From an uncultured Candidatus Saccharibacteria bacterium (GTDB taxonomy: Bacteria; Patescibacteriota; Saccharimonadia; Saccharimonadales; 2-12-FULL-41-12), in assembly GCA_964444225.1 (NCBI GenBank), contig CAYUFM010000004.1:1-62526 (forward strand): a stretch of DNA of 62,526 nucleotides, in the 5' to 3' direction. Every line of letters starts with the position of its first letter. The stretch's first letter is position 1. Below the pieces are notes generated by a model. It made no database searches, had not been told where the DNA came from, and worked only from the letters and a program-made list of their open reading frames with translations. Shown piece by piece: positions 8,707 to 59,309 of this stretch. Both the position numbers and the translations under genes were made by a program.

Positions 8707-8733
8707 TTAGCACTCGTCAATAGGGAGTGCTAA
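8707..8733. promoter_or_regulatory. CIRCE element (HrcA operator) overlapping the clpP -35
   Basis: Perfect TTAGCACTC-N9-GAGTGCTAA; minus-strand TTGACG (8720-8715), 17 nt, TAAAAT (8697-8692). Confidence 0.93.
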
Positions 8734-9467
8734 TCTTTCATGTATATGTATCTTAGGTCTTCGGGTGGATCTTCACCCAACTCTTCTTTGAGTCTATCGA
8801 TATGGGTTTGTGCACCTAACGGCATCATAAGCCCTCCAACATCACAGTGACCCCTTGCGTTCCATCGAGGATCATTATCGCTAACCAGTACCCATTCACC
8901 ATCACAAGCTAATATGCCAGAAATCGTACCTTCATACTGGAAACGGTCATTAACTTCATCTGCTGGATATTTATACTCTTTATTTCTATATGAATCGATT
9001 ATTTCAGAAGTAGCACCAGGGTTTGTGCCAATTTCTGGTAGAGTAACCCTCTCCATGAATTTCCAATTATGCCCCACTCCTAAATGACGCCATTTTCTAA
9101 CCACCAAAAGTTCTCTTTGGGTCCTGGCGTATTCTACTTTTAGGTCTACTCCAGCAAAAGCTTCTTCTGCCTTTGTCTCGGGGAGCACAAAAGCACTTGT
9201 TGTGACAAAATGGGGCCTTGTGAGCACTCCCATGCGTTCTGTGTATTTCGGAACAAAGACTTCACTACTAAGTTGTGTGAACAAGCCCTCCTTAAGAGTT
9301 CTCGCAACACCCTTAAGGCATATTTCATCAATCTCCTCTTGCGTAAAGCTAACAAAACCTGTTTCTTGTGACTCGTGACCTAAACCAGGTAATTGAACAA
9401 TAACCCGGTTGTCGCCTTCAGCAGGAGACCCAGTAGAAAACTCTCCAATTTCTTTAAAACTTGGCAT
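8730..9467 (-). CDS. hypothetical protein (245 aa) between tig and clpP
   Basis: Long ORF filling the gap; no recognised motif. Confidence 0.75.
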   Translation of the reverse strand: MPSFKEIGEFSTGSPAEGDNRVIVQLPGLGHESQETGFVSFTQEEIDEICLKGVARTLKEGLFTQLSSEVFVPKYTERMGVLTRPHFVTTSAFVLPETKAEEAFAGVDLKVEYARTQRELLVVRKWRHLGVGHNWKFMERVTLPEIGTNPGATSEIIDSYRNKEYKYPADEVNDRFQYEGTISGILACDGEWVLVSDNDPRWNARGHCDVGGLMMPLGAQTHIDRLKEELGEDPPEDLRYIYMKD

Positions 9468-9487: not shown

Positions 9488-10768
9488 TTAATTTGCGTTT
9501 TCAACAATAAAATTCACGACTTTTTGGCTGAGGATTCGGCTGGCAATATCACGGCGAGCTTCTTCTTTCTCTAATTCTGCCTGCATCGCCGGGTCGGTAT
9601 ACTGACCTTTTAGCATTTGCATCTGGATCTCTAGCTCTTCTGGAGTAACATTTATATCCTCTACTTCAGCGACTTCGCTTAGTAATATCGCAGTCTTTAC
9701 TTGCATTGTGGCCCGCGGCACAAGCACATCTTTTTTGTAATCTTCGTCAGTTTTACCTTCAAGTGCCAAGAATTCTTCATAAGTTTGGCCGCGATAATTA
9801 AGGTTGCGCCTAGTTTCTTCTAGCTCAAACTGAACTTGTTGGTCTATTAGCACCTGTGGCAAGGCAACTTCGCTATCATCTACAAACTGTCCAACAAGAT
9901 CGTTTTGCTTAAGGCGCAGAGACTCTTGCTCAGCTTCGTGAGTAAGTTGTTTCTTTATGTCTTCTTCTAGCTCTTTAAGCGTTTTAAAAGGCCCGACCGT
10001 GGTTGCAAATTCATCGCTAAGCTCTGGTTTGGTCATTTCATTAATGGTCTTTACGCTGACGCTAAACGTGACTTTCTTACCTGCCAAAGCCTTGACGCCA
10101 TATTCTTTAGGGAAAGTTAGGCCTAGGTCTTTATTTTCATCAGCTTTCATGCCAATGATTCCAGACTCAAAACCTGGAATAAATGAGTCACTTCCGAGAG
10201 TCAAGGGGTAATCGGCGCCTTCACCACCGCTTATAGGTGCACCTTTTTCGTCTACACCTTTAAAATCAATGATTGCTTCATCGCCATCTTTAGCAGAGCG
10301 CTCTACAGCAGTACGCTGGCTCATGCGTACGCGCAAGTTTTCTAGAACGCTTTTTATGTCACTATCCAGTACTTTTTTAGTAGAAACATCAGTCTTGAGA
10401 CCTTTGTATTTACCAAGTTTAACTGGCCCTAGAACACTTGTTGTTACATCGAATTCTAATGTAGTAAACGGCACAAACTTTTTAACATCTACTTTAGGCT
10501 GGGTCACTGGTCGAACGTCCTCAATCTGGGTAGCGCTGGCGTAAAGCTGTGTCATTGCCTCGTCCAGAAATTCCGTCTGTAGAGTCGTAGGATCGATATT
10601 TTTCTCGGCCACCTGCAATGGCACTTTGCCATCACGAAATCCCGCTACCTTAACATTTCTTGCTAGTACTTTTAGTACTTTTTGCTTAATCGGCTCCAAA
10701 TCTTCGGCTACTGCCGTGATATGTAGAGTTACTTCAGTTTTACTATTATCGGTCTTTGTTACATGCAT
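9488..10768 (-). CDS. tig: trigger factor
   Basis: GFRDGKVP ribosome-binding motif, FKBP domain (FIPGFE, FPKEYG); near clpP. Confidence 0.97.
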   Translation of the reverse strand: MHVTKTDNSKTEVTLHITAVAEDLEPIKQKVLKVLARNVKVAGFRDGKVPLQVAEKNIDPTTLQTEFLDEAMTQLYASATQIEDVRPVTQPKVDVKKFVPFTTLEFDVTTSVLGPVKLGKYKGLKTDVSTKKVLDSDIKSVLENLRVRMSQRTAVERSAKDGDEAIIDFKGVDEKGAPISGGEGADYPLTLGSDSFIPGFESGIIGMKADENKDLGLTFPKEYGVKALAGKKVTFSVSVKTINEMTKPELSDEFATTVGPFKTLKELEEDIKKQLTHEAEQESLRLKQNDLVGQFVDDSEVALPQVLIDQQVQFELEETRRNLNYRGQTYEEFLALEGKTDEDYKKDVLVPRATMQVKTAILLSEVAEVEDINVTPEELEIQMQMLKGQYTDPAMQAELEKEEARRDIASRILSQKVVNFIVENAN

Positions 10769-10878
10769 AGTTGGATATATTAACAGATTAGGCTTAGTCT
10801 GTCATTTATAATTATATTAGAATCTCACTTTCGCTGTTTCCAGCTCATCAGCATAAATACACATTTATGGAGTGAGTA

Positions 10879-11523
10879 GACAGATGAAGGAGTTTGAGAA
10901 AAGTGGGAGAAAGGGGTCGTGAGTGCGCGGGAGGCAGCTCGAGAAACTTTGACCAAACCTTAGTTCGCCAACTATTTCTCAAACGCCAACATCCGTCGAC
11001 TCACTTTGAAACCTTACCGCCGGAGATGTGGTGCAGAACGCACCGGGCGCCGGCCGGAAGACACAAGTACGGGCGCAGGGATGCGCTTTTGGACCGAGCT
11101 TTGCAGCTCCCGATCCAGGTTATTAAACCTGATGACAACCAACGTCATCAGTTCCGAGGCGATCGCCTTTGACCGCCGATAGCCGGCCTGGGTCTTGAGT
11201 GAGAAACGATCCGCTCCGAGATGCTTCACTGAGCCGATGACGGTGCAACTGTCGCCGGAAATTGCCCTTACAACCAGAGAGGGAGTGAGCTGAAAGCCCT
11301 TCCTCTTCCGTGGCCGGATCGTCAAAATCCACGTGCCGGATTCAGTCTCAGACTCGCCGAGTCTGATCCAGAACTTGTTGTTCCCGATCGACATTACCGT
11401 TTCCGGTGCTTTTCTGGGTGGCATTGTTTGCCTTTCCTGGTTTGCTTTTCTCGCTGTGCGAGAAACAATAGACTTAATTAAAATCTACTTTTTCTCACAC
11501 AGCCTAAACTCAATTCATCTGTC
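10879..11523 (-). other. long-range complementary flanks enclosing a GC-rich ORF (putative structured mRNA or cassette)
   Basis: GACAGATGAA 10879-10888 / TTCATCTGTC 11514-11523; GAGTTT 10890-10895 / AAACTC 11506-11511; GTGGGAGAAA 10903-10912 / TTTCTCACAC 11491-11500. Confidence 0.6.
11014..11424 (-). CDS. GC-rich basic hypothetical protein (136 aa)
   Basis: ATG with AGGAAAGG 6 nt upstream; G/C-ending codons predominate; about 57% GC by hand count over 11041-11400. Confidence 0.75.
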   Translation of the reverse strand: MPPRKAPETVMSIGNNKFWIRLGESETESGTWILTIRPRKRKGFQLTPSLVVRAISGDSCTVIGSVKHLGADRFSLKTQAGYRRSKAIASELMTLVVIRFNNLDRELQSSVQKRIPAPVLVSSGRRPVRSAPHLRR

Positions 11524-11588
11524 AATGTACCAGTTTGGAGTCAACTCAAACCAAATATATCAGTGAGGCCTCAACAAACTTAAGGTAC

Positions 11589-11616
11589 ATTATACAACTT
11601 ATGTCAACATTTTCAA
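11589..11616 (-). promoter_or_regulatory. putative sigma70 promoter for the GC-rich ORF
   Basis: TTGAAA (11616-11611), 16 nt, TATAAT (11594-11589). Confidence 0.55.
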
Positions 11617-12917
11617 CGACGAAAGTCTTTTATTATGCTGACAAGCCGTTCTGCGCCATGTTTTTCTTCGTTTCCTGACTTCAGATCTTTTAGCGGGTAT
11701 TGTTGTTGTTCTAGCTCATTTTCGCCAACAAATATTACGTAACGTATGTCTTTTTTATCTGCGTGCCTTAGCTTAAGATCAATTTTGCGATCTGTAGCAT
11801 CTACGGCTAAATTCAATCCCATTCCTCGTAAATCGGATAAAAACTTCTGGATTTTTTCGTAAACATCACCTACTACTATGACCAAAGCATCGGTTCCTGG
11901 ATGTAATACTGGCAATAAATGATGTGACTCCAAAAAATTTTGAAGCGTAACGTCACCCATCCCAAACCCAACAACCGGCAAAGGATCGACGCCAAACATT
12001 TCTACCAAGCCGTCATATCGACCTCCGCCAAACATTGCCCGATTATTCTCTGGATCAGTATCAAAAACTTCAAAAACTATCCCATTATAATAGTCCAGCC
12101 CCCGAATAACAGTGATATCAAATCGAGCATTCTCTACTCCAGATTTTTGTAAAATTTCTAAAATATCTCTAATTGTTTTAACACTATCGTGCTCTTGCAG
12201 GTCTGCCGGCAAATCATTAAGCGATGCAACAGAAAGAACATTCAGAATTTTATCGCTTAGACCATCTGACTTTTGGCTAGGAGAACACATAGCGTCAATC
12301 TCAGCCTCAAACACATGACGCTCTATCTTGTGCATTTTATCCACCAGTTTATACATAGTTGTTGTTTGAGTTGGATTAAGCCCAAAATAATCAACCATTA
12401 AGTGATTCATAAATTGGCGATTATTTATCCTAATCTCATACATTTCTGGTTTAGCCCCAAAAGATTTCATAATGTTATTTGCCACAAGAATAACCTCATG
12501 ATCAGCTGATAATCCTTCTTCGCCAAAGATGTCTACGTTTAATTGCCAGTGCTCGCGTAGCCTGCCACGCTGAGGCCGTTCGTATCGCCAGAGATTAGGG
12601 ATAGAAAACCACCTCAAAGGATAGCCAAGCTCTTGACGTCTAGCTGCCACCATCCTGGCAACCGTTGGAGTCATCTCGGGCCGGAGTGTAACTTCACGAC
12701 CGCCCCTGTCTATAAAGCTGTAAGTTTCTTCATTTACTAAAGCTTCGCCCGATTTTGCTGCATATAGTTCTAATGGCTCTAAAATAGGCGCGTCATATTC
12801 AGCATAACCGAACTTTTTAACAGTATTTCTTAGCACGCCAAAAATATAGTCCTGAACTCTCTTGTCCTCAGGATAAAAATCACGAGCTCCCTTATATGGT
12901 TTTACGGAAAGTGCCAT
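11613..12917 (-). CDS. hisS: histidine--tRNA ligase
   Basis: LRPEMT, RYERPQRGRLREHWQ, RGLDYYNG, GGGRYDGL. Confidence 0.98.
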   Translation of the reverse strand: MALSVKPYKGARDFYPEDKRVQDYIFGVLRNTVKKFGYAEYDAPILEPLELYAAKSGEALVNEETYSFIDRGGREVTLRPEMTPTVARMVAARRQELGYPLRWFSIPNLWRYERPQRGRLREHWQLNVDIFGEEGLSADHEVILVANNIMKSFGAKPEMYEIRINNRQFMNHLMVDYFGLNPTQTTTMYKLVDKMHKIERHVFEAEIDAMCSPSQKSDGLSDKILNVLSVASLNDLPADLQEHDSVKTIRDILEILQKSGVENARFDITVIRGLDYYNGIVFEVFDTDPENNRAMFGGGRYDGLVEMFGVDPLPVVGFGMGDVTLQNFLESHHLLPVLHPGTDALVIVVGDVYEKIQKFLSDLRGMGLNLAVDATDRKIDLKLRHADKKDIRYVIFVGENELEQQQYPLKDLKSGNEEKHGAERLVSIIKDFRR

Positions 12918-14629: not shown

Positions 14630-15181
14630 TTAGATAACCTCTATTTCAGCACCTCTTAGAGCTACGCTACTACCGCAGAAGTACCTGTCCAACTCTTCTT
14701 TTATTGGCTCAACAGGGAGTCCTGCTCTTACAGCAACAATTCCAAAAGGGAAGGTTCGTTTTGGTTTAAAAAAATTTCTAGCGTCAAATTCTTCATAGAA
14801 TCTACGGAGTTCGTCGTCAAAGTATGGCAAAACATGATCATCGAGTCCTACGCGTACATAATTGAAAACCGAGCTTCTTGCTACGACTTTTACTTTATCT
14901 ACTGGCACCTTATCGAGACCACCGAGAGAGTTGTGTGCAAAATCATTAATCTCAGCTAAGAGGGCGTCTGGACCATTTGGAAATCTACTCTTAACTACTG
15001 AGATATCTTTGCTACTTATGACACGAACACCATAAGTCTCTGGGCTACCAAGTAAGAAATTTCCAGTTCGGTGAGCCATTTCTTCCAGCGCATCTAAATT
15101 TACTTCGCCTGGATGACGAACGCAAACTCTATCTAGCTCTACATTGCTACCGCCTAAGTCTGAACCTGAAGAAACATACAT
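14630..15181 (-). CDS. hypothetical protein (183 aa)
   Basis: ORF fills the intergenic gap; no motif recognised. Confidence 0.7.
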   Translation of the reverse strand: MYVSSGSDLGGSNVELDRVCVRHPGEVNLDALEEMAHRTGNFLLGSPETYGVRVISSKDISVVKSRFPNGPDALLAEINDFAHNSLGGLDKVPVDKVKVVARSSVFNYVRVGLDDHVLPYFDDELRRFYEEFDARNFFKPKRTFPFGIVAVRAGLPVEPIKEELDRYFCGSSVALRGAEIEVI

Positions 15182-15829: not shown

Positions 15830-15901
15830 GCAACTCAGTATAGGCTAATCTTTTGCATAAATATAATTGACTATATATAGATTATAGTGTATTATATATT
15901 T

Positions 15902-16285
15902 ATGCATAGAACAGAAACATCAGAGCGCGAACTCGCAAGAACCTCAATTACTCAGTATGTACATGAAGGTACACCCGTAAATGTTGATGCACTAACATTC
16001 TTAACTCACCCGGATGTTCTAGACCAGATTGTCTACGGTGACGACAAGCCAAACAGGTGCCCTCTCGATGAATCTTCAACAGAAAGATATCAAAGATTAG
16101 CCGAATTAGTTAAGAGGTTAGGCCATGTAGAAGATACCGTTCCAGAGCCTCAAGCACATGAGGTACTCATTGAAACCCCTAAGCCTTGGTGCAACCCAAA
16201 CCCTGATAAAAATGACTTAGAACATCTTGTAAAAAGAGCTTTTAAAACACACCCCACCAGAAGCTCCTATTTTTCAAAAAACTAG
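15902..16285 (+). CDS. hypothetical protein (start revised to ATG 15902)
   Basis: TTGACT-17-TATTAT promoter (15867-15895) ends 6 nt before ATG 15902. Confidence 0.7.
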   Translation: MHRTETSERELARTSITQYVHEGTPVNVDALTFLTHPDVLDQIVYGDDKPNRCPLDESSTERYQRLAELVKRLGHVEDTVPEPQAHEVLIETPKPWCNPNPDKNDLEHLVKRAFKTHPTRSSYFSKN

Positions 16286-58928: not shown

Positions 58929-59309
58929 ATGTTTGAAAATTTAGGTGAAAGAATAAAAAAGCCTCTCGCTATTACTGGTCTTGTTGCCACATCTTTCGGG
59001 TTTGTTGCATGCGGTCCAAGATTTCAACAACCGACTGATGGGAAAATTGATAGTCAGACGACTGATGATTCATTTTCGGTTACACACGATTACACGCCTG
59101 AAGGAATGAGAATAACCGAATATAGAAATAGAGGAAAATATTTAGCTGTGGACCAAACTTATGCATACTGCGATGGCCCTGACATGGTAGAATTTCCAGC
59201 AGGTGGGGGTAACAAAAAAACTGGTACTACTGTCATAACTCGATCAGCAGGTCACACTGCTTGCGAGGACGGGAAACTCAAACCTGAAGATTTTCTAATA
59301 GCTAATTAA
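58929..59309 (+). CDS. putative lipoprotein / exported protein
   Basis: Basic N-region, hydrophobic stretch, lipobox-like FVAC; strong SD. Confidence 0.8.
   Translation: MFENLGERIKKPLAITGLVATSFGFVACGPRFQQPTDGKIDSQTTDDSFSVTHDYTPEGMRITEYRNRGKYLAVDQTYAYCDGPDMVEFPAGGGNKKTGTTVITRSAGHTACEDGKLKPEDFLIAN

Follow-up and report, generated by a model that had tools for sequence, protein, structure and literature searches.

A hammerhead-ended RNA cassette with covarying ends and exchangeable cargo at the hisS-tig junction of a saccharibacterial genome

What kind of genetic unit is formed by a GC-rich orphan gene that lies between two genes of native composition and whose untranslated flanks can pair with each other? 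The gene is located in a stretch of 62,526 nucleotides (the window) of the genome G000, which is 845 kb long and has 41.0% GC. The ORF at 11014-11424 on the minus strand encodes 136 amino acids and has 57.2% GC and a GC3 of 0.67, whereas the GC3 mode among the 811 ORFs of G000 is 0.30-0.40. A previous reading made from the sequence alone (the sequence-only reading) had placed the ORF at this position with about 57% GC, above that of its neighbours, and the recount agrees with it. The promoter named there, TTGAAA-16-TATAAT at 11616-11589, is present with 11 of 12 consensus bases, and transcription would start near 11582. The features of the cassette and its flanks are:

11613..12917, minus strand, gene taken to be hisS, upstream flank, native composition
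11589..11616, minus strand, sigma70-type promoter (-35 TTGAAA, -10 TATAAT), which shares bases of its -35 box with the stop codon of hisS
11530..11582, minus strand, 5' leader hairpin region; 11562-11568 duplicates the 5' strand of stem III
11491..11523, minus strand, leader blocks pairing with the 3' tract; the core 11514-11523 is the covarying end helix of the family
11447..11503, minus strand, long leader hairpin (11453-11503) and alternative short hairpin (11447-11465); the cassette of genome G006 is laid out likewise
11431..11438, minus strand, Shine-Dalgarno sequence
11014..11424, minus strand, cargo ORF for a 136-aa orphan; GC3 0.67, actinobacteria-like codon score third of 811
10975..11005, minus strand, 5' arm of the hairpin in the 3' UTR; its first bases repeat the 3' strand of hammerhead stem III
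10871..10912, minus strand, 3' pyrimidine tract, able to pair with either of two partners but not with both; its last bases (10871-10876) are the 5' strand of stem III
10823..10877, minus strand, type III hammerhead; cleavage predicted 3' of CUC, at 10870/10869
10852-10869, 10845-10851, 10833-10844 and 10824-10832, minus strand, hammerhead stem I, core, stem II, and GAAA with stem III, respectively
10777..10805, minus strand, promoter-like site of the downstream tig gene, which marks the downstream boundary of the cassette
9488..10768, minus strand, gene taken to be tig (trigger factor), downstream flank, native composition

The names hisS and tig were assigned from the sequence, and tig, with its start at 10768, is likely leaderless. 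The strong Shine-Dalgarno sequence that the sequence-only reading held to distinguish the gene is present at 11438-11431, but it is less diagnostic than claimed, since 25% of 795 native-composition ORFs have a Shine-Dalgarno interaction of -6 kcal/mol or stronger, compared with 5.5% of random sites. No variants of the cassette interior were seen across DNA contigs. Other native-composition genes are located in the window at 8730-9467, 14630-15181 and 15887-16285, the first two of them without a Pfam match.

The sequence-only reading overlooked the hammerhead and the full 31-nt hairpin at the 3' end. The Rfam hammerhead model (RF00008) matches positions 10823-10877 of the minus strand with 36.7 bits and an E-value of 5.5e-6, below the gathering score of 48.5. 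The element has an intact core (CUGANGA, GAAA), three stems, and the cut-site triplet CUC, which conforms to NUH. Stems I and II are closed by loops and stem III is open, which fits the structural definition of type III. A model built here scores it at 72.1 bits, with this copy included in the training set. By its structure the element is a type III hammerhead, and self-cleavage is predicted.

The hammerhead is not unique to this locus. G000 contains five such elements, each of which closes a GC-rich unit, and the five units have little sequence in common outside the motifs. In an alignment of 29 copies, chosen by a script that required the stems, 94.3% of cells are paired and 14 of 17 pairs have compensatory changes; the pair-count measure was attained in 48 of 500 shuffles. 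Within the order, the model built here has matches in 59 of the 151 genomes, a count to which the training genomes, G000 and the unpublished G062 contribute. The model matches 21 of 151 genomes of the phylum, and 2 of 101, both weakly, in the actinobacterial class of a Glutamicibacter genome. In the closed genome G007, of which 1.15 of 1.19 Mb was read, seven of the eight hammerheads are preceded by 600 nt with at least 52% GC, a value reached by only 6.6% of windows of that genome. Of 94 hammerheads collected, 57 were analysed, namely those whose unit measured 330-1400 nt, contained an ORF and had a promoter call; four loci with doubtful promoter calls had been removed by hand. The median GC3 of the 57 units is 0.65, with 45 at 0.55 or above and 12 below, and 47 have a strong Shine-Dalgarno sequence. 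The sequence-only reading had proposed a search for further GC-outlier ORFs with complementary flanks; a leader-trailer helix covaries across 25 units. The cassette is an instance of an RNA architecture selected across the order, and the 136-aa gene is one of its payloads.

The exchange of the payload can be observed at the hisS-tig junction itself. Among 28 relatives, tig directly follows hisS in 15, one other gene intervenes in 11, one sequence is too short, and one genome, G006, contains a cassette. Within the genus, five of six genomes have an empty site and G006 a filled one. The leader and stem III of the G006 cassette are homologous to those of the unit studied here, its end helix is preserved by compensatory changes, and it has the same competing 3' hairpin; its cargo is unrelated. 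The comparison of the sequences indicates that the frame is conserved and the cargo exchangeable. The distribution of the cargo is patchy (5 of 401 genomes).

The three blocks of long-range pairing reported in the sequence-only reading, 11514-11523 with 10879-10888 (10/10), 11506-11511 with 10890-10895 (6/6) and 11491-11500 with 10903-10912 (9/10), were reproduced, as were its three local alternatives, 11491-11503 with 11453-11465, 11458-11465 with 11447-11454, and 10892-10901 with 10975-10984. The segment 10821-11583 folds with -285.3 kcal/mol (z -5.9), and none of 20 shuffled sequences was as good. This value by itself is not decisive, because two of eight native 650-nt controls, compared with a cruder shuffle, reached z-scores of -3.8 and -6.7. 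In a comparison among the 57 units, uncorrected for their relatedness, the mean score of the 3' tract with its cognate leader is 23.1, against 17.3 for non-cognate leaders, and none of 10,000 permutations was as high. The 95th percentile of non-cognate scores is exceeded by the leader in 25 units, by the 3' hairpin in 24, by both in 11 and by neither in 19. In the 25 units in which both motifs could be anchored, 114 of 150 unanchored positions form Watson-Crick pairs, compared with 74 ± 5.5 expected, and in 24 of them the end helix is positioned at a fixed distance of 8-13 nt from the cut site. Together with the cassette at the same site in G006, these units provide the covariation that the sequence-only reading had suggested looking for, and as judged from the sequences the end pairing is a selected feature.

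The local alternative at the 3' end is a hairpin of 31 nt, 84% complementary, formed by 10871-10901 and 10975-11005. The hairpin sequesters stem III, because the 3' strand of that stem is repeated at the start of the arm 10975-11005. The leader and this arm are mutually exclusive partners that compete for the 3' tract. When the leader is omitted from the predictions, the 3' hairpin is formed at 0.99-1.0 in both this cassette and that of G006, and among 15 units that were chosen for having a 3' hairpin, stem III does not exceed 0.09 in 14. Inclusion of the leader raises stem III in seven of the 15 selected units, leaves it unchanged in seven and lowers it in one; it reaches at least 0.49 in only four, and is 0.08 in the unit studied here. 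The favoured state is reversed between this unit and that of G006. The existence of two exclusive states is thus well supported, whereas their order is not. The sequence-only reading inferred a conformationally gated or stabilised mRNA. The alternative pairings are real, but they bear more on stem III than on the Shine-Dalgarno sequence, the predicted accessibility of which differs little between the states (0.37 vs 0.44). The covariation supports the proposal of a structured mRNA cassette with paired ends and two states, and the product, a 136-aa non-hydrophobic orphan, sets it apart from type I toxin genes.

The architecture suggests a mechanism in which promoter, leader, cargo, hairpin and hammerhead form a unit with swappable cargo, with cleavage by the hammerhead predicted at 10870/10869. 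No intrinsic terminator was found on the strand of the cassette and Rho was found in none of five genomes, so self-cleavage may be what makes the 3' end of the mRNA. In an RNA that lacks the leader, the 3' hairpin would hold stem III and block cutting, and leader pairing would therefore favour the cleavage of complete transcripts. Cleavage would leave a 2',3'-cyclic-phosphate end about 10 nt beyond a helix, and this end would be resistant to exonucleases. The RNA may then reach the host, with a relaxase-free type IV secretion system (T4SS) as a candidate route. These steps differ in how probable they are. The sequences make it likely that self-cleavage and end-sealing produce a long-lived mRNA, wherever it is read; for the dependence of cutting on the leader the chances are about even; and the delivery of the sealed mRNA to an actinobacterial host and its translation there is put forward tentatively, at somewhat less than even. 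What the sequences show directly is the architecture, its recurrence, the covariation of the end helix, the exchange of cargo at one site, and host-like codons in orthologues at synonymous saturation.

The cargo protein itself provides few clues. The 136-aa sequence has no relatives in a search of 5.8 billion sequences, and its three matches among 1.84 billion representatives are all spurious (repeat proteins). No match was found in metagenome contigs, Pfam, NCBIfam or PADLOC. A single-sequence structure model (pLDDT 44) contains a beta-meander and one helix at low confidence; a search of a structure atlas gave TM-scores by query of at most 0.52, and the best structural Z of 6.1 is not distinct. 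The predicted product is a basic, non-hydrophobic orphan. A tentative identity as a levivirus coat protein received no support and is unlikely, because the same frame in G006 carries unrelated cargo. Among cargo proteins in general, 73 of the 80 scanned (95 were extracted) lack a Pfam match.

The codon use of the cargo bears on the question of which ribosomes read it. The 14 cassette genes of G000 avoid ATA, CTA, TTA and GTA, which are used at 0.04, 0.03, 0.01 and 0.08 against comparison values of 0.33, 0.23, 0.23 and 0.31. High expression is ruled out as the cause of the high GC3, because highly expressed native genes have a GC3 of 0.38-0.42, with 0.38-0.40 for DnaK, GroEL, RpoB and RpoC. The 16 of 811 ORFs with the highest actinobacterial codon score comprise 11 from hammerhead units, with the gene studied here in third place, four from GC-rich units without a hammerhead, and one at a contig end. 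The codon shift correlates with Actinobacteria at rho 0.95-0.96 and with two high-GC Verrucomicrobia loci at 0.89-0.94, both values being inflated by a shared denominator. Among A/T-ending codons without TA, rho is 0.72-0.80 with Actinobacteria vs 0.30-0.60 with Verrucomicrobia.

A block common to G000 and L058 allows the age of the bias to be judged. It contains a set of lipoprotein, GSP synthase, DUF350, hammerhead and channel, beside which are two genes outside the cassette that are presumably for polyamine synthesis. The four cargo genes are 32-49% identical, with GC3 values of 0.62-0.70 and 0.64-0.86 in the two genomes, and the two outside genes are 47-56% identical, with 0.31 and 0.37-0.47. 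Four-fold sites differ by 63-74% in cargo and outside genes alike, which is near saturation. The high GC3 was kept though the synonymous sites look saturated, which argues that the codon use is maintained and not left over from transfer, unless G000 and L058 acquired the set independently. The host-like codon use of the cargo thus appears to be maintained. A tree of the GSP synthase was tried as evidence for a donor; it contained three wrong-frame rows and the saccharibacterial branches were unresolved, so no donor was inferred.

The same sealed RNA could instead serve the cell that makes it, as a long-lived message for the ribosomes of the epibiont, stored for example through a host-free stage, with high GC3 and the avoidance of UpA reflecting selection for RNA stability. 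The cargo ORFs fold better than their synonymous shuffles (median z of -1.7 for 29 cargo ORFs, -0.3 for 40 native ORFs; p 7e-5), and TA across codon junctions is depleted in them (0.52 vs 0.99). The shift is thus due at least in part to selection at the RNA level, and selection for RNA stability alone could raise GC3. All 15 relatives examined retain the anti-Shine-Dalgarno sequence of 16S rRNA (the 16S gene of G000 is absent from its assembly), and native genes use Shine-Dalgarno sequences, so the epibiont can read the messages of the cassettes; a loss of the anti-Shine-Dalgarno sequence was considered and rejected on this basis. PNPase is present, tRNAs exist for most codons, and no new transport route is required. 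However, the highly expressed native genes did not acquire a comparable GC3, the shift keeps the actinobacterial rank order even in the A/T-ending codons without TA, and host-type families and a partial pathway are found among the cargo. Use within the producing cell is a real possibility, slightly less probable than translation in the host.

The speculation of the sequence-only reading, an mRNA or effector tuned to the host, is supported indirectly at best. The proposed translation in the host is favoured by the actinobacterial affinities of cargo relatives. The best named matches of one cargo gene are Saccharibacteria with the same gene order, which makes G000 a probable saccharibacterium. 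The partial pathway is a cassette at L253:6231-9660 with purE (so named from its sequence), purC and purH in a 95%-complete genome in which PurM and PurL domains were not found. This is one case; G007 has PurM and PurL domains, and its purC is written in native codons. All known Saccharimonadales hosts are Actinobacteriota according to the relevant part of PMC12592800, and most Patescibacteria T4SS clusters lack a relaxase according to that of PMC12102498. Lgt was above the cut-off in none of 121 genomes and LspA was found in none of five, but native-composition genes carry lipoboxes too (about five plausible among nine regex matches in 1167 ORFs), and for that reason the lipobox test does not favour the host. 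TatC was found in 10 of 41 relatives and was consequently not used as an argument. No genome with TGA read as glycine was evident in the phylum sample. Classic lipobox signals in native-composition genes are present at 58929-59309 of the window and at L197, L207, L233 and L234 in G007. An invariant stretch follows the anti-Shine-Dalgarno sequence in the 15 relatives (L037-L051) and could fold back on it.

If the RNAs are delivered, Saccharibacteria may possess a second class of genes, written for the ribosomes of the host, transcribed from promoters of the epibiont, cut and sealed by a 3' hammerhead and an end helix, and passed as mRNA into the actinobacterial host. Such mRNAs would make channels, conjugation-type apparatus, metabolic enzymes and orphan effectors like the 136-aa protein. 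Taken jointly, these two proposals are suggested by the sequences with some hesitation, a little short of an even chance. To our knowledge, there is no established delivery of mRNA from one bacterium to another.

A mobility device similar to a retrozyme or a gene cassette, with a transcript that is cleaved, reverse-transcribed by an enzyme acting in trans and reinserted, and with the GC content inherited from recent donors, would explain why the hisS-tig site is filled in one genome of the genus and empty in others, the different cargo at the same site and the patchy distribution of cargo. However, the unit has a single hammerhead and no terminal direct repeat, no flanking or other long direct repeat was found around the cassette, neither a reverse transcriptase nor RtcB was found in G000 (99% complete), though a host or a phage may supply a reverse transcriptase, and viral contigs had no match with two exact patterns. 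The five units of G000 share little beyond the motifs, and the codon bias persists at synonymous saturation. The small mobile cassette that the sequence-only reading offered as its alternative thus did not gain support, and an origin of this kind is unlikely. Alternatively, the gene may have arrived by ordinary transfer, the hammerhead doing no more than replace a terminator or act as an insulator in a Rho-less cell, and the long-range pairing being incidental. The failure to find Rho or a terminator fits this explanation, and prophages are known to carry hammerheads on the flanks of genes (PMC3088659). An incidental pairing is at odds with an end helix that covaries at 8-13 nt from the cut site, and the association of hammerheads with GC-rich units and the maintained codon bias also make the explanation improbable. 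A type I toxin-antitoxin locus like hok or aapA, to which the long-distance 5'-3' pairing and the alternative local folds are similar, is scarcely credible for a 136-aa non-hydrophobic orphan in a frame whose other cargo ranges from enzymes to 8-kb operons, without a plus-strand promoter for an antisense RNA within 10600-11800.

The cassette resembles several known systems in part. The mRNAs of hok/aapA type I toxins are processed at the 3' end, and their long-distance 5'-3' pairing competes with local folds. The cassette has the pairing and the exclusive folds; its 3' end would be made by a ribozyme, it can carry any cargo instead of a small toxin, an antitoxin was not seen, and the predictions give no clear switch of the Shine-Dalgarno sequence. 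Retrozymes and viroid-like circular RNAs are highly structured, several hundred bases long, and have type III hammerheads and paired ends. A retrozyme has two LTRs, each with a hammerhead, whereas the cassette has one hammerhead, no LTRs, protein cargo and a sigma70 promoter, in a genome in which reverse transcriptase and RtcB were not found. Phage morons are self-contained genes with their own promoter that are present or absent between conserved genes. The cassette is like them in its promoter and its variable presence at hisS-tig, and unlike them in its chromosomal location, the ribozyme in place of an intrinsic terminator, and the shift to high GC.

Bacterial and prophage hammerheads have been described as multiple, flanking variable genes and unclear in function (Perreault et al. 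2011, PMC3088659, in the sections concerned). With those members of RF00008, as these sections present them, the cassette shares the core, the stems, the cut-site triplet and the variable adjoining genes. It differs from the prophage hammerheads of the same sections in having a single 3' hammerhead at a chromosomal site (hisS/tig), a promoter to itself, a leader-trailer helix that covaries, a 3' hairpin in competition with that helix and cargo with host-like codons, and no prophage or integrase context was seen at this unit. The RAGATH-10 model (RF03147), which spans only one leader hairpin, has no match in G000 at E ≤ 10; among 20 related loci, three have leaders that score 32-40 bits, below the cut-off of 41.2. 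Term searches of PMC6107228 and PMC5737381 gave no passages of relevance, and RAGATH is not mentioned in the main text of the latter. In the literature outside subscription journals and bioRxiv supplements, no paper on hammerheads in Saccharibacteria, Patescibacteria or the candidate phyla radiation, on ribozymes in Saccharibacteria, or on effectors, mRNA and codon usage appeared to describe such units. The relaxase-free T4SS of Patescibacteria and the effector clusters of Saccharimonadales have been proposed to deliver effectors to actinobacterial hosts; the parts of PMC12102498 and PMC12592800 that deal with them name genes or proteins as effectors and do not suggest that mRNA is delivered.

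On a conservative reading, bacterial hammerheads, whose role was left open in the 2011 survey, gain a testable job in making and sealing the 3' ends of one delimited group of mRNAs within a large lineage. The frame also serves as a sequence tag for candidate host-interaction genes in Patescibacteria, most of which are orphans. If the RNAs are read in the host, they would be mRNA effectors that act between bacteria, which bears on the exploitation of hosts by epibionts and on the cargo of the relaxase-free T4SS.

Some units depart from the common pattern. Structured units that end in a hammerhead and have no ORF or a tiny one are located at C8:25110-25700 in G000 and at L008, L010 and L023, and the frame may carry non-coding cargo too. 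Four GC-rich units of G000 have no hammerhead (C1:17000-18500, C6:44950-46150, C6:46290-48140 and C10:11560-12140). Three of the four end in a common GAG/CUC bulged hairpin and share a leader motif, and the cargo of the four includes DUF11, Ig-like and potassium-channel proteins. A GAG/CUC bulged-stem motif is also present in the leader hairpin region of the cassette described here, at 11534-11555, and recurs in the leaders of other units. As an export signal the motif is a lead only, with five occurrences in G000 and one to four in shuffled sequences.

Several cargo genes are of interest in their own right. L052 (C9:23560-32300 in G000) is a GC-rich operon of 8 kb with VirB4-like and SCO6880-family genes, both below the cut-off, and phage-lysozyme genes; it ends in a hammerhead with the core variant CCGAUGA. 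The cassette operons at L185 and L027/L254 contain a ThiF/E1 gene (PADLOC matches to BilD and E1-E2) and small neighbours, resembling ubiquitin-like anti-phage modules. The cargo at L009:1019-1411 has an RNA polymerase alpha-CTD domain. A family of small proteins, found at L022, L158 and L016, apparently recurs in three families, and the named relatives of its member at L022, the only one searched, are Acidimicrobiales.
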